Notes: generated by a model from the sequence alone, not told the origin. A stretch of DNA of 64,000 nucleotides from an uncultured Gemmatimonadales bacterium (GCA_963815325.1 CAWFGG010000010.1:213631-277630); one strand, 5' to 3'. Shown: positions 4,691 through 14,276, counted from the stretch's first letter. Program-made: numbers and translations.

Positions 4691-5694
4691 CCGAACGACT
4701 GCGGGTCGGGGTGATCGGTGCGGGCGCCATCGCCCAAGTCGCCCATCTGCCTACGCTCCGCCGAATGAAAGACGTGGAGGTGGCCGTGGTGTGCGATTCG
4801 GATCTCCCGAAGGCGCGCGCCGTGGCCAACCGATTCAAGATCAACGACGCCTTCGACGACATCGATGACGTGCTGCGGTACGAAGAGCTGGACGCGCTGG
4901 TCATCAGCACGCCCAATCACTTGCATGAGTCCCACGCTATATCGGCCTTGTCGGCCGGGCTCCACGTCCTGGTGGAAAAGCCGCTCGCCACCTCCACCAA
5001 GGGGGTGAACCATGTAATTCGCCAAGCGAAGAAGAGCGATCGCATCCTGATGGTCGGCACCAATCAGCGGTACCGCCCCGATGTGGAGACCGTCCGCGGA
5101 TTCGTCGAAAGCGGTGAGCTCGGCAAGGTCGACAGCGTTCGCGGGAGCTGGCACGTGTTCCGGCCCAGCCGGCTCCAGCTCGGCTGGCGTCTGCGTCAGG
5201 AACTGGCCGGTGGCGGTGCCATGCTCGATCTCGGGCTTGCCGTGCTCGACATCGGACTCTGGCTTGCGGGCAATCCGGTGCCGACCAGGGTCAGCGCCGT
5301 CCTCAACCGCATGAGCGAGCGCTCGGTGGAGCATTCCGGGAGCGCCTTCGTCGTATGCGAGAACGGGGCATCAATCTTCCTCGACGTCACCTGGAACCAC
5401 ATCGGAGACGGCGAACGGTTCGGCGCCGGAGTGCGTGGCAGCAAGGGGACCGCGAGCATCAACCCGTTCGTGGTGTGGAAACAGATGCACGGCGCACCCG
5501 TCAACGTGTCGCCGACGACCTCCTGGGGTCGCGAGACGCCGTACCAGGCATCGTTCCGCGCCGAGTGGGCGCACTTCCTCGCCGCCATCCGTGGCCAGGC
5601 CAAGGCCCCGCCGCTGGAAGACCAGGTCACCCTGCATCAAGTGCTCGACGCGATCTACCAATCCGCCGAAGAGAACCGGGACATCAAGTTGTGA
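4687..5694 (+). CDS. Gfo/Idh/MocA-family oxidoreductase
   Basis: GVIGAGAIA Rossmann motif, TPNHLH, HVLVEKP, GGGAMLDLG. Confidence 0.92.
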   Translation: MTERLRVGVIGAGAIAQVAHLPTLRRMKDVEVAVVCDSDLPKARAVANRFKINDAFDDIDDVLRYEELDALVISTPNHLHESHAISALSAGLHVLVEKPLATSTKGVNHVIRQAKKSDRILMVGTNQRYRPDVETVRGFVESGELGKVDSVRGSWHVFRPSRLQLGWRLRQELAGGGAMLDLGLAVLDIGLWLAGNPVPTRVSAVLNRMSERSVEHSGSAFVVCENGASIFLDVTWNHIGDGERFGAGVRGSKGTASINPFVVWKQMHGAPVNVSPTTSWGRETPYQASFRAEWAHFLAAIRGQAKAPPLEDQVTLHQVLDAIYQSAEENRDIKL

Positions 5695-6974
5695 GGCTGC
5701 GGAGTCTCCGCTGCGCCGGCCTGGCAGCCGTGGCCCTGGCGGCGCTCGGCTCGTTCGGCCACGCCCAACCGCCCGCCACGGCGGCCGAGGATGCCGAGGC
5801 CGGAACCGCGCTCACCGTCTACCTCATGACCATGGGGCCTGGGGCAGCGGTCTGGGAGCGGTTCGGCCACAATGCCATCTGGATCCACGATGCGGTGCAG
5901 GGAACCGATGTCGCCTACAACTACGGCTTGTTCGATTTTCGGCAGGAGAACTTCCTGCTGCATTTCGCCCAGGGCCACTTGCGGTACTGGATGGATAGCA
6001 TGGACGCCGAACGGTCGGCCATGTTCTATATGCGGCAGGATCGGTCGTTGTGGGTCCAAGAACTCAATTTGACAGCCGCGCAACGCGCCGAGCTACAACG
6101 GTTTCTCGAATGGAACCGGCAGGAGCAGCACAAGTTCTACGATTACAACTATTACTGGGACAATTGCTCGACCAGGGTGCGCGATGCGCTCGACCGCGTC
6201 CTGGGCGGTGCCATCAAGCGGCAAACCGAAAGCGTCGTCACCTCAAACACCTACCGCAGCCACACCCGGCGGCTCCTCCAGGTGGACATCCCGGCCTACC
6301 TCGGCATCATGCTCGGGTTGGGCCAACCGGTCGACCGTCCCATTTCCGTATGGGAAGCGGGCTTCCTCCCGGTACAGCTCCAGGAATCGCTGAGGAACAT
6401 TATTGTGAACGAAGGAGGCGAATCGAGCCCGCTGGTGCTCCGGGAGCGGACCTTGTTCGAGAGCAAGGCGCTGCCCGAGCCGACCTCGCTGCAGCGGTTC
6501 TGGCCCCGCTTCGCCTTGCTCGGCTTCATCCTTGGCAGCGTCCTGGTCCTGCTCGGGTGGAAGGCCAGGAACAGTAGATTCGCGCGCGGCAGCTTCTTCA
6601 CCCTCGCCATTCTGTGGAGCGGACTGACGGGGGTCGCGGGAATCATGCTGGCATTCCTCTGGTGGTTCACCGACCACGCCACCTCCGCGGCCAACGAGAA
6701 TCTGTTCCACGCCAACCCCGTGAGCCTTCTCCTGGCCGTGGCACTCGTGGCCGGAGCGCTCGGAGCCCGTCGGCCCCGGTCGGCGGTCCGGTGGCTGGCC
6801 GTCGGTGTCGCGGGCCTTTCGCTTCTTGGGGTTGTGCTCAAGGTGCTCCCCGCGATGTACCAGGTGAACGGCGACGTCATCGCACTCCTCCTGCCAGTCC
6901 ACATGGGCTTGGCACTCGGGGCATGGCACGCGCTCGGCCGCGGTTCGGCGCCCCCCGCCGGCAGTGCCGGGTAG
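5691..6974 (+). CDS. DUF4105 / Lnb-type lipoprotein N-acyltransferase-like membrane protein
   Basis: Signal peptide; FGHNAIWI, YNYGLFDF, YDYNYYWDNCSTRVRD, FLP motifs; C-terminal TM bundle; GTGA overlap with upstream stop. Confidence 0.82.
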   Translation: MRLRSLRCAGLAAVALAALGSFGHAQPPATAAEDAEAGTALTVYLMTMGPGAAVWERFGHNAIWIHDAVQGTDVAYNYGLFDFRQENFLLHFAQGHLRYWMDSMDAERSAMFYMRQDRSLWVQELNLTAAQRAELQRFLEWNRQEQHKFYDYNYYWDNCSTRVRDALDRVLGGAIKRQTESVVTSNTYRSHTRRLLQVDIPAYLGIMLGLGQPVDRPISVWEAGFLPVQLQESLRNIIVNEGGESSPLVLRERTLFESKALPEPTSLQRFWPRFALLGFILGSVLVLLGWKARNSRFARGSFFTLAILWSGLTGVAGIMLAFLWWFTDHATSAANENLFHANPVSLLLAVALVAGALGARRPRSAVRWLAVGVAGLSLLGVVLKVLPAMYQVNGDVIALLLPVHMGLALGAWHALGRGSAPPAGSAG

Positions 6975-6986
6975 GCCAATCTGGTC

Positions 6987-8469
6987 GTGACCCGCCCCTG
7001 GGTGTTGGTCATGGCGGGGGCGGTGCTCGCCGTTCTCGCGTACCCGCCGTTTCATCTGTTCGTTCCCTCTTTCATTGCGCTGGTTCCGCTCTACGTCCTG
7101 CTCGATCGGGCGGCCCGTGACGCGCGTCCCACGCGCGCCGGATGGTACGGCCTCGCTGCCGGCCTGGCCGCGAACGGTGCGCTCCACTGGTGGATGCCGG
7201 CCGCCCTTCGCCCGTACACCGCCCATCCCGAACTGGCGTACGGGCTGGCCGTGGTCCTGCTCTCGCTCTACTGGGGGCTCTTTGGTTGGTGGGTGGTGCG
7301 CACCTGGGTTGGACTACCCCGCGTACCTCGCTGGCTGGTATTCGCGGCCGGATGGACCACAATGGAATGGCTCTTCGGTCATCATGGCCCCATAGCGTTT
7401 CCCTGGCTCGGACTGGGCACATCGCTGACCGGGTTTCCTACCGCGGTCCAGTGGGCCGATATCGCGGGGGCGCGTGGTGTCACGTTTTGGCTCGCCGCGT
7501 CCAGCGCGCTGGTGGCGGTCTTTCTCGCTTCACCGGCGCGGCATTGGCGTTCCGCGCTGGCCGTTGTCGGCTCCGTATTCCTAGCTCTCGGGTACGGCGC
7601 GCTGCGTACGCGGTCGCTCGAAACACACGCAGTTGGGCGTGTCCTCCTGGTGCAGTCCAATGAGAAACTCGCGGTTGAGCGGGATACTGCCGAGTGGAGC
7701 GAAGCCGTGGCCGCGCTGGTCGATCGGACCGAGCGCGCGGTTGCTGCGTCGCGGCCGGACCTGGTGCTCTGGCCCGAGGCGGCGCTCCAACGAGGCTCGA
7801 CCGAAGACCTCGAAATGGTGCAGGATGTGGCTCGCCGGGTGAGCGTACCCATGGTGGTCGGGGCGCTCGAGCGGGTCCCCGACGGCGCATCCAGTGAGCG
7901 GCTCTACAACAGTGCCGTTCTGATCGATCCGGGCAGCCACCTCAGCGGACCCGTCTATCGAAAACGGCACCTGGTTCCCGTTGCCGAACGAGGTGCGATT
8001 CAGTCTGGGGCAGACGGCGTCATCATGCGCCTTCGCACCGGCACTGCTGCCGGTGTCGTAATCTGCTATGAGGTGGCCTTTGAGGGTTTGGCCCGGGCCT
8101 ATCGACGCCGGCAGGCGGACGTGTTGCTCAATCTTTCGAACGATGCGTGGGCCGGGCGCACCAACGCCCGCTCCCAGCACACAGCACATCTCGTCATGCG
8201 GGCCATCGAAACGCGCATGGGTGTGGCCCGTGTGGCGAACACTGGACCGTCGCTGGTGGTGGACCCGCTGGGTCGGGTGACCGCTCACACGTCGAGCGAT
8301 GTGTCGACCAGTCTAACCGCGGAGCTCGCGACGTCCGCGGTGACGTCCGTGGTACGTGCAAATGGGAGATTGGGTCGCGCTCGCGGCTGGTGTCGTCGTG
8401 CTCGGGCTTACGGGAATGCTTGTGTCTTCTTCCAGACTTGGTCGCTCTGGTGTTCGAGACGGATCGTAG
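6987..8469 (+). CDS. lnt: Apolipoprotein N-acyltransferase Lnt (extra base near 8346; true C-terminus in next frame)
   Basis: N-terminal TMs, FPWLGLG, triad WPE / YRKRHLVP / ICYE, SNDAW, MRAIETR, ANTG; conserved T-x-Y-x-x-x-GDW plus last TM appears only in the shifted frame ending TAG 8469. Confidence 0.85.
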
Positions 8470-8896
8470 CGTCGGGGCCCGGCACATAGGTGAAGACGAA
8501 CTCGAAGGGCTTGCCGTGGTTCACGTATACGACCTGGTAGCGCATGTTCGGCCCGTCCTCCTCGGACATGACGCGGCGGATCGGGTGGATCGAGTACTCG
8601 TAGGGTCCGTCTCCCGTTCGGAAGAGGAGGGTGCGCGCCTCGATCTCGAACGGCCGGCCCGCGTAGGCCGGGGCATCCGATTCCCACACCCCGATCAGCG
8701 TTTCCGGGATGTCCTCCGTCGGCGGTGGCATGAGCCTGAACGCCGCGACGGCCATCGCCACCACTGCTGCCGCTATGATGAGCACGCGGCCGCGCGACGT
8801 CGTGCTCGGCCTCGAGGTTGCCGCGGGTCCGTCGACAGGACGCGCTGGATCGTTCCGGCGCATGGTCTCGGCACCGGCCTTGTCTGATGCCGTCAT
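8408..8896 (-). CDS. Small membrane-anchored protein, beta-rich (lipocalin-like GxW) domain
   Basis: ATGA overlap with HD-GYP stop; TM VLIIAAAVVAMAVAAF then LIGVW and beta-rich sequence. Confidence 0.7.
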   Translation of the reverse strand: MTASDKAGAETMRRNDPARPVDGPAATSRPSTTSRGRVLIIAAAVVAMAVAAFRLMPPPTEDIPETLIGVWESDAPAYAGRPFEIEARTLLFRTGDGPYEYSIHPIRRVMSEEDGPNMRYQVVYVNHGKPFEFVFTYVPGPDATIRLEHQSDQVWKKTQAFP

Positions 8897-11088
8897 GAGA
8901 CCGCCTTTCGCGTTGCCGCGACTGCGTCCGATGCTGGAGACGAGCCCACGATTCTCAATCCAGGGGACCCGGTCTGGCGTCGGACCAGGGCCTCCACCTG
9001 GGCCTCGTCCTTCATGATGGTGATGAATGCCGCCGCCATGGGCGGATCGAATTGGGTCGCGGCGCAGTGGTCGATGTAATCGATGGCCTCCCGGTGGGTC
9101 CAGCCGGCGCGGTAGGGCCGATTGGAAGTCAGGGCGTCATACACATCCGGCACTGCCAAGAGCCGGGCCATGAAGGGAATGTCTTCACCTGCCAGGCCGT
9201 CGGGGTAGCCCGCGCCGTCGAACCATTCGTGGTGGTTCCGCACGATGGGAATTGCCGGGGCGAAGGCCGCAATCGGGGCGAGGATCCTGGCTCCGACCGT
9301 GGTATGGTCCTGGATGATGCGCCGCTCCTCCTCGGTGAGCGGACCGGGTTTGTTCAGGATGCTGGTGGGAATCCCGATCTTGCCGATGTCGTGCAACAAC
9401 GCGCCCCGGTGGAGCATGTCGAGCTCGCCCGGCGTCAGCGCCAGCTCCTGGCCCAACCGGACGGCGAGTGCGCTGACCCGCTCCGAATGCCCGGCCGTCC
9501 AGGGCGAGTTCGCGTCGATGGTTCGGGCCAAGGCGGAGAGCGTACCCCAGCTCAACTGATTCAGATCCTCTACCAGGCGGGTATTGGATAAGGCCACCGC
9601 TACCTGATCGGCCAGGCGGCGGGCTTGCAGCAGGTCCTCCCGATCCACGGTGGGGGCGTCGTAATAGTCGAGGGTTATGATGCCTGTCAACGTGCCCATC
9701 TGGAGCAAGGGGAGGGCGATGGAACAGGTGCGCCGGCCCGCGATTTCCTTGGCGTCGTTGAGGTAGGACCGAAGCCCCATGTGCCGGCCCAGAATCAGGT
9801 GGTCCTCGCTCTCTTCGAGTTCCCGTATCTCATCGGTAGCGAGGCGGATGTCCCGGGTGATACGGTATCGCTCGACGGTCGCGACGGCCACGTATTTCCA
9901 CGGGTCGCCGTCGCGCGCCGGGCCGACCGTAATGCTCATCGCATCACACGGCATCACTTCGCCGAAGCGCGACAGCACCGAATCGATGATCGCATCGGCG
10001 TCGAGCGACGAGAGTACGGCCTGGTCGATCTGGTTGATGACGGTGAGAGTGTTGAACTGCTTGCCCAGGGTCCGGCTCATGGCGTTGAACGAACCGGCCA
10101 GGTCCTCGAACTCGTCTCGGGTCGTGACCTCGACCGGGACGTCGAACTCGCTTGCGGCGATCCGCTTGGTACCCTCCTGGAGCTTGAGCAGCGGGTCCAT
10201 GCTGCGCCGGATCTGCACGTTGCTGAGCAGAAAAACGGCCACCAGGGTCAGCACCAGGATCAGGGGGAAGGTGCGCCTGAAGTTACTCATCGGCGCGAGC
10301 GCCAGGGCCGTCGGCTCGCTCGATATCACGGTCCAGCTGGCCGTCTTGAATTCGTAGCTCAAGAATATGGGCCAGTACCCGGCCAGGAAGCGTTCCTTCT
10401 CGTAGAGCCACTCGAAGGTGCCGCCGGCTGTTTGTTGCTGGTCGCGAAAGGCGCTTTCCATGGCGCGAGTGTACCGGGGAGTCGAGCAGAAGAGCACGTG
10501 ACTGGCCCCTGCGAGGACGCAGGGGTGCGTGTCGGGATCGACCAAGTCGGGGCGCCAGAGATAGGCCGGCTCGATCTCACCCCAGAGAATACCCCGGGCC
10601 AGGTTGCCCTGGTCCACCGCCACCCCGAGGAAGAGGGTGCGCGTCGAGCGGGCTTCCTCGATCAGCCCCTTCCCGGACGCGAGATGGGTGCTGTCGGCGG
10701 GTGATATGGCAGTCGGCAGCTGAGCGTCCATCCTGCCGCCAAGTGTGACGTGCCCTGCCTCCGTTTCGAGGACCAGGCTACGGAATCGGGCCCTGAGGGC
10801 GGCCAAGGTTTCCCAGGGCGAGCGCGCCTCGCCTCGCGGGTCGGCCCTGATCGCGTCGGTAGCGGTTCTGAGCTCGGTCTCCAGGAAGTGCAATCGCTCG
10901 ACGATCGCCATGCCTTGAGCCTTGCTGGCCTGAAACACGCGGGCCCGGCTCTGTTCCTCGAGCTGGCCGCCCACCCGCTGGTAGGCGATGAAGCCGACCA
11001 CCGCGACCGGGACCAGCGCACCCAGCATGAAGAGCCCGAGAATCCGGCGCGCCACGCGCGTGCGAAGAAAGGTGGTGGTCTCTAGCAT
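8893..11088 (-). CDS. Membrane HD-GYP cyclic-dinucleotide phosphodiesterase (TM-periplasmic sensor-TM-HAMP-GAF-HD-GYP)
   Basis: HAMP RDEFEDLAGSFNAM; GAF-like LPL..GTLTGII; TAGHSERV, LHDIGKIGIP, HHEWFDGAGYPDGLAGEDIP, DVYDALTSNRPYR. Confidence 0.93.
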   Translation of the reverse strand: MLETTTFLRTRVARRILGLFMLGALVPVAVVGFIAYQRVGGQLEEQSRARVFQASKAQGMAIVERLHFLETELRTATDAIRADPRGEARSPWETLAALRARFRSLVLETEAGHVTLGGRMDAQLPTAISPADSTHLASGKGLIEEARSTRTLFLGVAVDQGNLARGILWGEIEPAYLWRPDLVDPDTHPCVLAGASHVLFCSTPRYTRAMESAFRDQQQTAGGTFEWLYEKERFLAGYWPIFLSYEFKTASWTVISSEPTALALAPMSNFRRTFPLILVLTLVAVFLLSNVQIRRSMDPLLKLQEGTKRIAASEFDVPVEVTTRDEFEDLAGSFNAMSRTLGKQFNTLTVINQIDQAVLSSLDADAIIDSVLSRFGEVMPCDAMSITVGPARDGDPWKYVAVATVERYRITRDIRLATDEIRELEESEDHLILGRHMGLRSYLNDAKEIAGRRTCSIALPLLQMGTLTGIITLDYYDAPTVDREDLLQARRLADQVAVALSNTRLVEDLNQLSWGTLSALARTIDANSPWTAGHSERVSALAVRLGQELALTPGELDMLHRGALLHDIGKIGIPTSILNKPGPLTEEERRIIQDHTTVGARILAPIAAFAPAIPIVRNHHEWFDGAGYPDGLAGEDIPFMARLLAVPDVYDALTSNRPYRAGWTHREAIDYIDHCAATQFDPPMAAAFITIMKDEAQVEALVRRQTGSPGLRIVGSSPASDAVAATRKAVS

Positions 11089-11091
11089 GGG

Positions 11092-11622
11092 TCAGAATTT
11101 CCAGGCGAGGCCGATGAATCCACCGTCGCGGGCCACGATGATGTCATCGCGCCCCTCACCCGAATTCAGCGGGACCGAGGTCGTACCGTTCTTCCCCATG
11201 CTGTAGAGGTCGTAGTAAGTGTTGATTGGCACCATGAAACGGTCCCGTCGCGATCCTTGTGGCATGCCGCGGGCATTGACCCGTACCGTGGCGAAGCTCA
11301 GGTACCGGTAGGGATTACCCCAGGGATCGAGCAGATTGGCCCGGCCGATGTCGGCCAGCGAAGGAGGAAAGGCTTGATGGGTGGAGTGATAGCCCACCAA
11401 CTCCGCGGTGATGTTCTCGAGCTCCCCGGTGGCCCGGGCGTTACGCGCGCGGGTCACGTTGTCCAGGTACTTGGGGTAGCCCAGTGCCACCGCGATGCCC
11501 AGGATGATGACCACCGACATCAATTCAATGAGGGTGAAGGCTCGGCGCCGGTTGTGAGGCGCCCAAATCCAGGCGGGCGGCCTCACCGAGGTGCCCCCAC
11601 ACATGTTGGGCTGGTGGTCCAT
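11092..11622 (-). CDS. Prepilin-type N-terminal cleavage/methylation protein (GspG-like); start uncertain (11586-11676)
   Basis: Class III signal RRRA|FTLIELMSVVIILGIAVALGYP; DPWGNPYRY and YDLYSMGKNG as in GspG. Confidence 0.88.
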   Translation of the reverse strand: MDHQPNMCGGTSVRPPAWIWAPHNRRRAFTLIELMSVVIILGIAVALGYPKYLDNVTRARNARATGELENITAELVGYHSTHQAFPPSLADIGRANLLDPWGNPYRYLSFATVRVNARGMPQGSRRDRFMVPINTYYDLYSMGKNGTTSVPLNSGEGRDDIIVARDGGFIGLAWKF

Positions 11623-11739
11623 CCGGCTCGGCCGGCGGGCTTCGAATGAGCTGTTGCCAATGTTGCCCTCGGGCACGGGTCGACACGTGCGACGTCGGCG
11701 CCAACCGCGTCTATTCCGTTGGTTGTCAACGGGTTGGGG

Positions 11740-11756
11740 TGCAAAATCGGTGCCGG
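11740..11756 (-). promoter_or_regulatory. Putative sigma54 (-24/-12) promoter of the prepilin/HD-GYP operon
   Basis: Minus strand CCGGCACCGATTTTGCA: GG-N10-GC, one mismatch to TGGCAC-N5-TTGCA. Confidence 0.65.
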
Positions 11757-11872: not shown

Positions 11873-11910
11873 AAAACCAAACGCGCCGGACCCCAGGAGA
11901 GTCCGGCGCG
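11873..11910 (-). terminator. Intrinsic terminator after CsgG/TPR gene
   Basis: 10-bp stem CGCGCCGGAC/GTCCGGCGCG (11882-11910) followed on minus strand by TTTGGTTTT. Confidence 0.75.
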
Positions 11911-11936
11911 CTGGCCGTTGATCTTCATGTCGAGTC

Positions 11937-12626
11937 TCAGGATCGGGCCTTCCTGAGTCCCTCCTTCGCCTCGGTGTAGTCGGGGAACAGCGTGATCGCC
12001 TGCTGGTAGAACTCGGCGGCCTTGGCCGTGTCGCCACGATCGTGGTAGAGCAGGGCCCGGCTGAACGCCGTGAGGGCTTCCGTCGGTACCGAGCGGACCG
12101 TACTACCGCCCGCGCCGCCCGGAAGTCCGGTCTTGGTCACGATGCCTGCCGCGAGATCTCGAAGGAGGCCGTACAGGGATTGCCGGTCGGCTGGACCGGC
12201 CTGGACGACCGTGAGGATCTCACCGGTCTCGACGTCCACGATCCGGGCATCGATCCGGAACTTGCCGTAGTAGTCGATGAATGTTCCCATGATCGCGTAC
12301 CGCGCGCCCACCTGTGCTCCGATCCGGGCGGCCGTCGCCGCATCGACCCGGCCCGACTCCTCGAGATCCGACTGATCGAGGAGTCGCTGGGTTTCAGTTC
12401 GCTCGATCACCCGCACCGATGTGTTCCGGCCGAGCTCGGCAATGAGGGTGGCCGGGATGCCACGTTCTAGCGCGGCGAAGATTTCCTTGTCCTGCCCGTA
12501 GGACCCGCCATTGGAGAAGGGAAGGACCGCAAGGCCGGGGCGCGCGTCTTGGGCTGCCAGGGGTGCCGCCATTACGGCGAGTGGTGCCAGAATGCCCAGA
12601 ACGGCTTGGGAAAGGCGCCGATTCAT
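11937..12626 (-). CDS. Exported CsgG/TolB-N-like domain protein with C-terminal TPR
   Basis: Signal peptide ending LAA; LAVLPFSN, RVIERTE, AARIG..VGARYAIMG, RIDARIVDVETGEI; TPR AAEFYQQAITLFPDYTEA. Confidence 0.82.
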   Translation of the reverse strand: MNRRLSQAVLGILAPLAVMAAPLAAQDARPGLAVLPFSNGGSYGQDKEIFAALERGIPATLIAELGRNTSVRVIERTETQRLLDQSDLEESGRVDAATAARIGAQVGARYAIMGTFIDYYGKFRIDARIVDVETGEILTVVQAGPADRQSLYGLLRDLAAGIVTKTGLPGGAGGSTVRSVPTEALTAFSRALLYHDRGDTAKAAEFYQQAITLFPDYTEAKEGLRKARS

Positions 12627-12642
12627 GTCTGCTCGCTCCTCG

Positions 12643-13509
12643 TCAGAGGGTGAGGGTTGCGCCTTCCTGCGCGGCGCCGACGCTGAGACCCGTGCCGGCG
12701 CGCCGTGCGTGCGACTGCGCGTCGGCGAGCAAGCGATCAATGGCGTCGTCGCCGTTGGCCGGCTCGTGGTGAAACAGCACCAGGCGCGGGACACCGGATT
12801 CGATCGCGAGCTCCACTGCCTGCCGGGGTGTCGAATGGCCCCAGCCATGACGCGCGCGGATCGATTCCTCCGAGAACATGCCGTCGTGGATGAGGGTCTC
12901 TACCCCGTGGAGAAACTTAACCAGGCGGGCCCGCCAGTCGGCGGGCACGTCATAATCACCTCCCTGGCCCAGCTCGTTGTCGGTCACATAGGCCAGGGTG
13001 CCGCCCCCGTTGGCGGGGACGAGCTTGTACCCGAGCGTCACCCCCGGATGGCGGAGCCGGATGGCCTCGACCCGAACCGCGCCGATCGCGAAGGCGCCCT
13101 CAGTAACCTCCGTGATGCGGATGTCCGCGGCGAGCTTCTGCATGGGCACCGGGAAGACGACCGGCGCCATCTGCTGGTTCAGGATCTCCTCGAGCGCGAC
13201 CGTGCCCTGTCGAGCCCCGTAGATCCGGACCGTCCGGTCGGCATGATGGAGCGGCTGGAAGAACGGCAGGCCCTGGATGTGATCCCAGTGGGTGTGGGAC
13301 AGCAGGATGTCGACCCGATTCGGGCGCGAGCCCCGATGCACGAGATCCTGACCCAGCGCCCGGATGCCGGTGCCGGCGTCGAGCACCACCAGGTGGTCGT
13401 CGCCAAGCCCGACGGCAACGCACGCCGTGTTGCCGCCATAGCGCGTGGTCGTTGGTCCCGGGGTCGGGATCGACCCGCGGGTGCCCCAGAATGTGAGCGT
13501 GGTTGTCAC
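12643..13509 (-). CDS. MBL-fold metallo-hydrolase (RNase Z / phosphodiesterase-like)
   Basis: FWGTRGSIPTPG, YGGNTAC, LDAGTG, SHTHWDHIQG (HxHxDH), WGHST, LFHHEP; GTG 13509 follows GAGG (ORF track start 13533). Confidence 0.9.
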   Translation of the reverse strand: MTTTLTFWGTRGSIPTPGPTTTRYGGNTACVAVGLGDDHLVVLDAGTGIRALGQDLVHRGSRPNRVDILLSHTHWDHIQGLPFFQPLHHADRTVRIYGARQGTVALEEILNQQMAPVVFPVPMQKLAADIRITEVTEGAFAIGAVRVEAIRLRHPGVTLGYKLVPANGGGTLAYVTDNELGQGGDYDVPADWRARLVKFLHGVETLIHDGMFSEESIRARHGWGHSTPRQAVELAIESGVPRLVLFHHEPANGDDAIDRLLADAQSHARRAGTGLSVGAAQEGATLTL

Positions 13510-13581
13510 GGCAGCGGGAGCCTCATGCTCCAATATCGAGCGCGGAGAACGAGGAAGCGCGAGCGATGGTCACGCCGGGCT

Positions 13582-13597
13582 CGTGACCGCGGTCACG
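13582..13597. promoter_or_regulatory. CRP-box-like perfect palindrome
   Basis: CGTGA-CCGCGG-TCACG (GTGA-N6-TCAC) overlapping the crp stop codon, upstream of the MBL gene. Confidence 0.4.
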
Positions 13598-14276
13598 CGT
13601 GCTGGGCCGCGGCCGCGAGTGAGGCGCGATCCTGGAGGATGATCTCCTTCCGGTTCACCTCGATGACGCCGCGCTGCACCAGGTTCCGCATGGTCCGGGA
13701 GACGGTCTCCCGACTCGACCCGATCATTTGAGCTATCGTGTGGTGGGTGAGGCGCCGGGTGATGCGGTCTCCTCCCTCCTCCTTCGCGAGCTGCAGGAGG
13801 AGATTGGCCACGCGACCGTTCACGTCCAACAGCACCAGGCTGCCGATCTTCTGGTCGGCACTTCGGAGTCGGCGCGACAGCTCGCGCAGGAGCGAGATCG
13901 CCACCTCGGGCGACGCGCGGAGTTGGGCCTGGAAGTCCTCCCGCCTGAGCACCAGGAGGCCCGCATCTTCCATGGCGATGACGTGGGCCGACCGCGGTTC
14001 GTCGTCGAGCAGCGCCATCTCACCGAAAAAGCTTCCCTCCTGGAGCACTGACAGGATCACTTCACGCCCATCCTCGCCGATCAACACCACCTTGACCTGG
14101 CCCGATGCCACCAGGAACATCGAGTCGCCTCGGTCGTCGGCAAAGACGATGATACTGCCCTTGGGATAGGTCCGCTCCCTGGTCAGGGCTGCGAACCGGG
14201 CGAGGGCATCGGGCGGCATGTCCCGGAACAGCGGGACCTTCCGGAGCACATCTACGGGCGATTGCTGCACGGCCAC
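13593..14276 (-). CDS. Crp/Fnr-family transcriptional regulator (CRP-like)
   Basis: cNMP pocket FFGEMALLDDEPRSA; HTH LTHHTIAQMIGSSRETVSR; no Fnr cysteines. Confidence 0.93.
   Translation of the reverse strand: MAVQQSPVDVLRKVPLFRDMPPDALARFAALTRERTYPKGSIIVFADDRGDSMFLVASGQVKVVLIGEDGREVILSVLQEGSFFGEMALLDDEPRSAHVIAMEDAGLLVLRREDFQAQLRASPEVAISLLRELSRRLRSADQKIGSLVLLDVNGRVANLLLQLAKEEGGDRITRRLTHHTIAQMIGSSRETVSRTMRNLVQRGVIEVNRKEIILQDRASLAAAAQHA

Follow-up and report, generated by a model that had tools for sequence, protein, structure and literature searches.

Membrane sensors that respond to a pilin have been described in two systems: PilS of Pseudomonas aeruginosa senses PilA in the inner membrane (PMC6058289, in excerpt), and in the PilA-PleC-PleD system of Caulobacter inner-membrane pilin monomers are sensed and cyclic di-GMP (c-di-GMP) changes (PMC7196804, in excerpt). 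Here we describe a three-gene locus in a 64,000-nucleotide stretch of DNA (the window; positions are counted from its first letter) from an uncultured Gemmatimonadales bacterium (GCA_963815325.1, CAWFGG010000010.1:213631-277630). The locus encodes, in the same direction on the minus strand, a GspG-like prepilin, then a receptor-enzyme with a predicted double-Cache (dCache) sensor domain, then a small barrel protein. It resembles the PilA systems in that a pilin would be the input to a membrane sensor, and its receptor is similar to their sensors at most by analogy. The pilin of the PilA systems builds a working pilus as its major subunit and is read by kinases that have no relation to our receptor, whereas this module combines an orphan GspG-like pilin with a dCache-HAMP receptor whose output is HD-GYP, GGDEF-EAL, kinase or cyclase. 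PilS is a histidine kinase with six transmembrane (TM) helices and no periplasmic domain; the window receptor, in contrast, spans the membrane with two helices, exposes a large domain to the periplasm and carries HD-GYP as its output. We rate at slightly better than even the prospect that the trio belongs to a widespread and so far unnamed kind of sensory module, one in which a dedicated GspG-like pseudopilin has its place on the input side of a dCache-HAMP receptor.

The three genes are tightly coupled, and both junctions that had been noted between them can be read in the DNA. The prepilin open reading frame (ORF) occupies 11092..11676 on the minus strand; translation probably begins at the ATG at 11622, yielding the 176-aa product recorded as database cluster P0001, or else at the ATG at 11604. 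Three nucleotides (CCC) separate the pilin stop codon TGA from the ATG of the receptor-enzyme gene (8893..11088, minus strand, 731 aa), whose stop codon shares an ATGA overlap with the start of the small-protein gene (8408..8896, minus strand, 162 aa).

We surveyed the surroundings of pilin relatives in genomes and in metagenomes. The genome survey covered the DNA around the closest pilin relatives, one genome per species, and comprised 79 loci drawn from the best 80 of 399 confirmed matches; the metagenome survey was queried with an alignment of fused pilin forms, and its best 80 matches were kept. A homologue of the receptor N terminus was located directly 3' of the pilin gene, on the same strand and within approximately 500 nt, in 72 of the 79 genome loci. 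A sensor was located 3' of the pilin in 76 of the 80 metagenome loci, or 76 of the 76 that could be evaluated, the other four ending less than 200 nt after the pilin gene. Among the genomic exceptions, the sensor gene was divergently upstream in L004 and L050 and beside a second pilin copy in L030; a small protein took the place of the sensor in L019, L032, L038 and at the first pilin of L030, and L067 had neither. Assembly genes, searched by tblastn with nine queries from the host's own genome (PilB, a second GspE-like ATPase, PilT, PilC, PilQ, PilD, TadA, TadB and CpaC), were near the pilin at 1 of 159 loci (PilQ in L005, hence 1/79 genome and 0/80 metagenome loci). The check called for by the initial annotation, sensors against assembly genes as neighbours, therefore came out on the side of sensors.

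Going by their record titles, the 79 loci belonged to Gemmatimonadota (27), Beta- and Gammaproteobacteria (24), Acidobacteriota (12), delta-type/Desulfobacterota (12), Eisenbacteria (2), Nitrospirales (1) and Krumholzibacteriia (1), and cultured carriers include Acidovorax, Rhodanobacter and Desulfobulbus. An all-against-all clustering of ORFs indicated that the pilin, the sensor and the small protein are the only families conserved across loci; the remaining clusters that occur in at least six loci overlap the pilin gene or the sensor gene, mostly in antisense, and we interpret them as shadow frames. Orphan pilin genes are common, and the host genome contains 20 N_methyl matches, so that one might suppose the pilin to lie next to an unrelated phosphodiesterase by chance, but nothing further favors this. 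The same neighbor in 72/79 and 76/76 evaluable loci, in at least seven major lineages and with four output classes, refutes chance adjacency, and we regard its probability as negligible.

According to Pfam, the 72 downstream proteins of the genome survey carried HD-GYP (37), GGDEF plus EAL (23), HisKA/HATPase (6, some also with a receiver domain) or nucleotide cyclase (2) outputs, and four were cut by contig ends. HAMP was present in all of them except two of these four. A hidden Markov model built from the 37 HD-GYP-type N termini, with HAMP excluded, found all 30 sensors with other outputs (E ≤ 1.7e-9, Z = 1e6), most of them aligned over their full length, the Acidovorax-type ones being shorter and more divergent. 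The complete metagenome sensors (n = 33, grouped by BLAST) were 25 HD-GYP, 5 GGDEF-EAL, 1 kinase and 2 unclassified, one of which (L149) is a kinase by Pfam. A word search for the sensor domain returned only 21 proteins, too few to enter this census. The sensor end is thus shared across the output classes, which places the pilin on the input side. The initial annotation had tied the pilin to the phosphodiesterase; its linkage to the receptor stands, but the constant part is the dCache-HAMP input and not the HD-GYP domain, so that the pilin is linked to a periplasmic dCache-HAMP input module rather than to the HD-GYP enzyme as such.

The receptor-enzyme is built in the order TM1, periplasmic dCache-fold domain, TM2, HAMP, GAF and HD-GYP. 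Its sensor end (residues 1-268; 10285..11088, minus strand) contains TM1 (~14-36), the predicted double-Cache fold (~37-265) and the start of TM2. On the same strand follow HAMP (residues 293-341; 10066..10212; PF00672, 46.3 bits), a GAF-like region (residues 363-500; 9589..10002) and the HD-GYP domain (residues 520-682; 9043..9531), which matches HD_5 (PF13487) with 141.9 bits and HD (PF01966) with 65.2 bits and in which LLHDIGK, RNHHEW and DGAGYP can be read, so that the HD and GYP strings are intact. An enzyme with a periplasmic sensor, HAMP, GAF and an intact HD-GYP site, as proposed at the outset, is thus recovered; the GAF call is marginal here (22.3 bits against a cut-off of 22.4) and clearer in the receptor relatives (E 1e-10 to 1e-13). 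RpfG-type HD-GYP c-di-GMP phosphodiesterases share the strong HD_5 match and the intact HD and GYP strings, and the closest named NCBIfam model is that of a response-regulator c-di-GMP phosphodiesterase (126 bits, cut-off 400). In contrast to the RpfG type, the receptor input is a membrane dCache-HAMP-GAF chain with a proposed pilin partner and not a receiver domain, and c-di-GMP is its predicted substrate.

An AlphaFold2 (AF2) model of the receptor N terminus, with a predicted local distance difference test score (pLDDT) of 92.2, placed a long helix and two PAS-like alpha/beta modules between two TM helices, with a helix (265-311) continuous from TM2 into HAMP. Foldseek matched this model to PctA, Mlp24, Tlp3 and DctB at E 1e-7 to 1e-5 and, in total, to 106 PDB chains at E ≤ 0.001, the crystal-structure ones being dCache chemoreceptor and kinase domains; the match to 5t65_B had an E value of 1.8e-7 and a target-normalised TM-score of 0.66. 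Pfam dCache_1 gave nothing at E ≤ 0.1 on the window receptor and weak matches in 2 of 67 relatives (best E 0.0044), so that the domain is a dCache by predicted fold and not by Pfam sequence match. The ligand-binding domains of the dCache receptors PctA, Mlp24, Tlp3 and DctB therefore share the predicted fold of receptor residues ~37-265, whereas the window protein has no Pfam dCache_1 match, and to our knowledge none of the four needs a pilin partner. The periplasmic domain is poorly conserved; outside TM1, only L66 is near-invariant. Two Cys residues 12 residues apart (HPCVLAGASHVLFC; receptor ~187-202, window 10480-10530) are also present in the majority consensus of the relatives (C.x12.C, alignment A1) and may form a disulfide.

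The mature pseudopilin (11095..11538, minus strand, 148 aa) consists of a hydrophobic alpha1-N helix, a head with LDPWGNPY, a family-specific RDRFMVPINTYYDLYSMG segment and a tail, RDDIIVARDGGFIGLAWKF. The extended tail quoted in the initial annotation (RRDRFMVPINTYYDLYSMG...RDDIIVARDGGFIGLA) was found in the translation, as was the likeness to GspG. The leader is 22-28 aa long and the predicted cleavage motif is RRRA|FTLIELM, so that, judged from its residues, the protein has the features of a class III signal peptide: the methylation and cleavage motif, the hydrophobic helix and Glu at +5. The residue at -1 is Ala rather than the usual Gly; Ala was found in 10 of the 79 related loci and Gly in most. 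Matches to Pfam N_methyl (PF07963, 27.8 bits, cut-off 21.2) and TIGR02532 (26.4 bits, cut-off 16.3) were above threshold, and that to Pfam T2SSG (PF08334, 20.1 bits) was under the cut-off of 21. The nearest NCBIfam model, the GspG equivalog TIGR01710, gave 48.4 bits against a cut-off of 88.85, and the pilin is for that reason GspG-like but not GspG by this model. Its closest ESM Atlas clusters are T2SSG (score 0.97), the pseudopilin family comprises 2684 clusters at E ≤ 1e-10, and JGI labels the relatives 'general secretion pathway protein G', other labels being generic.

The resemblance to GspG consists of the class III signal peptide with F1 and E5, the DPWGNPY motif and the DLYS.G.DG...DDI segment, which would correspond to the calcium loop of GspG. 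The module pilin differs from GspG in a family-specific insert (R.D.F.VPIN..Y), in its C-terminal extension and in not lying beside secretion ATPase, platform or peptidase genes across the 159 loci; the genes that mark a type II secretion system (T2SS) operon (GspE ATPase, GspF platform and GspD secretin) are not in its vicinity. Alignment A2 of the pilin family has 14 invariant columns, including E5, DPWGNPY, P104, N106, D110, S113, G115 and D132. Among the relatives, E5 was retained in 67/67, P22 in 60/67 and G14 in 48/67; F1 was kept, and the residue at -1 was G or A.

Signaling modules also occur at the leader of related prepilins. In 14 of 27 longer database relatives (P0121-P0126, P0128-P0130, P0132, P0134, P0136, P0140 and P0143, as database gene calls), an N-terminal extension of 180-235 aa with the layout TM helix, short loop, TM helix, HAMP-like region and coiled coil ends in an invariant G|FTLIE. 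The extension aligned with the receptor TM2-HAMP region by hhalign (94.4% probability, E 9.4e-8). In one of the 27, P0137 (284 aa), a receiver domain (PF00072, 75.5 bits) is fused directly before the prepilin cleavage motif. A separate mini-HAMP gene accompanied the module in 5 of the 79 genome loci: in L014, L059, L068 and L073 it immediately precedes the pilin gene, and in L028 it follows the sensor gene. In the metagenome survey (L081-L160), 12 of the 80 loci had such a gene, the common order there being barrel protein, mini-HAMP, pilin and sensor; the Pfam HAMP match in these separate mini-proteins was sub-threshold (best 22.7 bits against 25). Because the metagenome loci that match the whole fused query have mini-HAMP and pilin in separate stop-to-stop frames, the giant-leader fusions rest on database gene calls only. 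The mini-HAMP protein resembles the receptor minus its dCache domain and output, and no mini-HAMP gene was found in the genome to which the window belongs. We know of no description of prepilins with domain-sized leaders.

These leaders, which are a whole 2TM-HAMP-coiled-coil or receiver domain with G|FTLIE kept, raise the idea of a cleavage switch. In the most far-reaching reading, which we think unlikely, the pilin would be an obligate processed subunit of a new receptor class, with filament biology itself as the signaling step: either a short 'sensory pseudopilus' made of the GspG-like protein would serve as the antenna of dCache-HAMP receptors, or regulated cleavage and release of the prepilin by the prepilin peptidase would be a switch. 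If filament assembly or prepilin cleavage were the signaling step, the system would be categorically new.

A complex of the pilin with the sensor domain, which the initial annotation had suggested modeling, was predicted for the soluble regions (residues 37-268 of the receptor and 22-148 of the pilin), with a separate alignment for each and with three controls. The score was 0.54 (median of 0.54, 0.28 and 0.66), and the best of the three controls scored 0.00; the runs agreed in at least 8% of contacts, and the pLDDT of the partner was at least 84. In a calibration that is roughly valid here, given the custom alignments, 116 of 157 solved complexes passed the mark, as did 2 of 215 mismatched pairs, but scores of 0.60 or below comprised only 18 of the 157 solved complexes plus both of the passing mismatches. 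The predicted complex thus lends weak support to binding between the pilin and the receptor.

Several results count against a dedicated pilin at the input of the receptor. The complex score is itself weak and no interface was returned. Both neighborhood surveys consist of the best 80 matches to their query, and one subfamily is consequently over-represented. Profiles of the pilin, the sensor and the small protein were also run against 201 Gemmatimonadota genomes, a less biased sample. They gave 30 pilin matches in 26 genomes, and 18 of these matches adjoin a sensor and 12 do not; conversely, the pilin was present at 18 of the 37 evaluable sensor-family loci (one row coming from the unpublished genome G056) and absent at 19, so that the sensor family has pilin-free branches. 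The pairing is therefore not obligate from either side. The pilins have a mean pairwise identity of 48% and the paired dCache domains one of 24%, which is odd if the dCache domain is the pilin's only contact. The pilin retains all hallmarks of one that assembles, and a filament subunit would account for them no less well than a static co-receptor. We found no experiment on any member of the module. Finally, the distance matrices of pilin and dCache domain are correlated (Pearson 0.47, Spearman 0.20; reached by 0 of 999 permutations), but this mirror-tree correlation is confounded by shared phylogeny and was set aside as evidence of co-evolution.

In the same sample the 12 sensor-less pilins all had a small-protein gene 250-700 nt 3' (12/12), and the small protein was present in 26 of the 26 pilin-bearing genomes and in 30 genomes overall; in this phylum sample the pilin is thus always accompanied by at least one of its two partners. 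The pilin-free sensors are mostly long frames of approximately 1000 aa, nine of them with an insertion that splits the domain match. Pilin-free dCache paralogues of this length were seen in G190, G174, G197, G117, G144, G124, G164 (C2), G189 (C25) and nine g4/g20 genomes.

Loci that have the pilin and the small protein without a sensor (4 of 79 in the genome survey, 12 of 30 pilin matches in the phylum sample) would suit a cassette in which the dCache domain binds a small molecule and the pilin, with or without the barrel protein, is an adhesin or pseudopilus under its control, with no contact between pilin and receptor. dCache domains commonly bind small ligands directly, as the matches to PctA, Mlp24, Tlp3 and DctB would suggest, and all four output classes could conceivably feed pilus control. 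However, enzymatic outputs have no direct means to act on the product of a neighboring gene, and tight coupling together with a constant input, rather than a constant output, is the usual signature of an input-side partner. The fusion or adjacency of the pilin to HAMP and receiver modules, the poor conservation of the periplasmic domain, in which L66 alone is near-invariant outside TM1, and a complex prediction that is weakly supportive beside zero-scoring controls also argue against such a cassette, which we consider improbable.

In the main alternative, the pilin would be a genuine filament subunit that machinery encoded elsewhere, here the type IVa pilus, assembles and retracts, and the receptor would sense how much of it remains unassembled in the inner membrane. 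c-di-GMP would thereby be linked to filament dynamics, in the manner of PilS-PilA in Pseudomonas and PleC-PilA in Caulobacter, for which the precedents are those given above (PMC6058289 and PMC7196804, in excerpt). The host genome (3.33 Mb, 98% complete) encodes two A24 prepilin peptidases, a type IVa pilus set and a Tad set in addition to its N_methyl proteins. The retained F1, E5, G14, P22 and G/A(-1), a head conserved like that of a major pseudopilin at the mean identity of 48%, and a small-protein paralogue that heads a minor-pilin operon in the same genome all agree with this explanation. Within the window, the module pilin is the sole N_methyl match; the type IVa and Tad sets and both peptidases lie outside, and the matches to T2SSE, T2SSF, secretin and Peptidase_A24 are all outside C10:213631-277630, which bears out the earlier remark that the window contains no pilus or T2SS machinery. 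Genome-wide profile matches showed no sign of a separate T2SS platform (a second GspF) or of a dedicated T2SS secretin. Against sensing of the pool stand the assembly-gene homologues at only 1 of 159 loci and the 230-residue periplasmic dCache domain, which co-varies in presence with the pilin and would be needless for intramembrane sensing of the PilS type. We hold this explanation to be possible but rather doubtful.

We favor a pilin-dependent receptor because the sensing end is constant, the output is interchangeable, the genes are translationally coupled, and HAMP and receiver modules are found at the prepilin leader. In such a receptor, the prepilin would insert in the inner membrane and would be cut by one of the two A24 prepilin peptidases, and the mature pilin would stay anchored by its N-terminal helix and present its conserved head in the periplasm. 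The linkage and the weak in-silico support suggest that the head associates with the double-Cache domain, probably together with the lipocalin-like small protein. A change in the state of the pilin, as the putative stimulus, would then pass through TM2, HAMP and GAF to the HD-GYP domain and alter the rate of c-di-GMP hydrolysis; this change could be between bound and free pilin, or between a membrane pool and pilin withdrawn into a filament. We infer, in line with the initial annotation, that the pilin may be a ligand or partner that couples pilus or secretion state to the enzyme.

Set against accessory-protein-dependent receptors and pilin-sensing kinases, the module represents a new variation that involves three uncurated families. 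A few model systems have shown that a receptor can be fed by an accessory protein, and a few that a pilin can be sensed in the membrane; the module looks like a dedicated and widely distributed combination of the two. Its pseudopilin, dCache and barrel families appear to be wired to c-di-GMP, cAMP/cGMP-type and two-component outputs in soil, sediment and wastewater lineages. The openly searchable full-text literature yielded no account of a module that joins a pilin to dCache or to HD-GYP, subscription-only papers being outside the scope of the search, and a term search for 'pseudopilin' gave 0 occurrences in the available portion of a review of c-di-GMP sensing (PMC8846402). If the pilin is indeed a receptor subunit, it would be a new type of input for second-messenger signaling, and many database names reading 'general secretion pathway protein G' would need correcting. 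The cultured Acidovorax, Rhodanobacter and Desulfobulbus carriers would in that case offer a tractable handle on filament proteins in sensing.

The small protein, which had been proposed as the third member of the module, recurs in 38 of the 79 genome loci and in none of the 24 Beta- and Gammaproteobacterial ones. Its AF2 model (pLDDT 90.0) predicts a cytoplasmic N-terminal tail, one TM helix (~35-54) and a periplasmic eight-stranded lipocalin-like barrel (~69-160). The best Foldseek match was the lipocalin-like BT_0869 (E 0.024), with weak matches also to avidins, and the matches of its fold in VIA had Z scores of up to 7.4 (Tp0751, Z 7.4), in the range of common arrangements. No Pfam family was found for the protein, and the barrel family comprises 1807 representative clusters. 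VtrC has a periplasmic lipocalin-like barrel fold. The arrangement is like that of VtrA/VtrC and ToxR/ToxS, in which a small single-pass co-sensor is encoded beside a membrane signaling protein (PMC9214523, in excerpt). In contrast to VtrC and ToxS, the small protein has no sequence similarity to either, and its partner is an enzyme-linked dCache receptor with a pilin, not a ToxR-type transcription factor as in VtrA and ToxR. VtrC and ToxS were absent among the fold matches listed for the small protein.

A paralogue of the small protein was identified in the host's own genome at C7:202062-202739 (L080 8063-8740), with 116 bits to the profile of alignment A3. It heads a minor-pilin operon that encodes a GspH-like protein, two other N_methyl proteins and two PilX_N proteins (down to L080 3141), which suggests that the barrel family is a general pilin-associated factor. 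A link of the family to PilP was rejected, since the seed cluster had included the PilP-like ORF of L005 and the match arose by construction; a model rebuilt from A3 without that ORF still found the small protein in 38/79 loci.

Short contigs identical to parts of the receptor gene occur in sediment metatranscriptomes, in two libraries that come from separate studies (X1 and X2). The contigs of X1 cover 10292-10442 and 10463-10786, and those of X2 cover 9007-9257, 9871-10021 and 10051-10201. Neither library contained a contig that spans a gene junction or covers the pilin or small-protein gene, and the receptor contigs may be DNA carry-over; these contigs demonstrate neither co-transcription nor silence of the trio. 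Two estuary metatranscriptome libraries (X3 and X4) contained more divergent relatives of the receptor.

Upstream of the trio, the initial annotation had noted an insulating terminator. A hairpin with a 15-pair stem (10 G-C), a loop of 3 and a T-rich tail, TGGTTTTCAC, is indeed located at 11880..11912 on the minus strand, just 3' of the gene for a CsgG/LpoB-like lipoprotein, but it is a terminator by consensus match only, and the region contains three such sites against 1.6 +/- 1.4 in shuffled sequences. The hairpin is thus suggestive of a boundary that would mark the trio off as a unit of its own.

Further upstream, the minus strand encodes this CsgG/LpoB-like tetratricopeptide repeat lipoprotein (11937-12848), a metallo-beta-lactamase-fold protein (12643-13533) and a Crp/Fnr-type cyclic-nucleotide-binding regulator (13593-14276); ORF clustering found none of the three genes conserved beside the module in other loci. 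At the opposite end, the ORF for Lnt (apolipoprotein N-acyltransferase), listed at 6987-8489 on the plus strand, is convergent with the small-protein gene and overlaps its 3' end by approximately 80 nt, and an Lnb-like gene (5355-6974) precedes Lnt, so that lipoprotein-maturation genes flank the module on the small-protein side.

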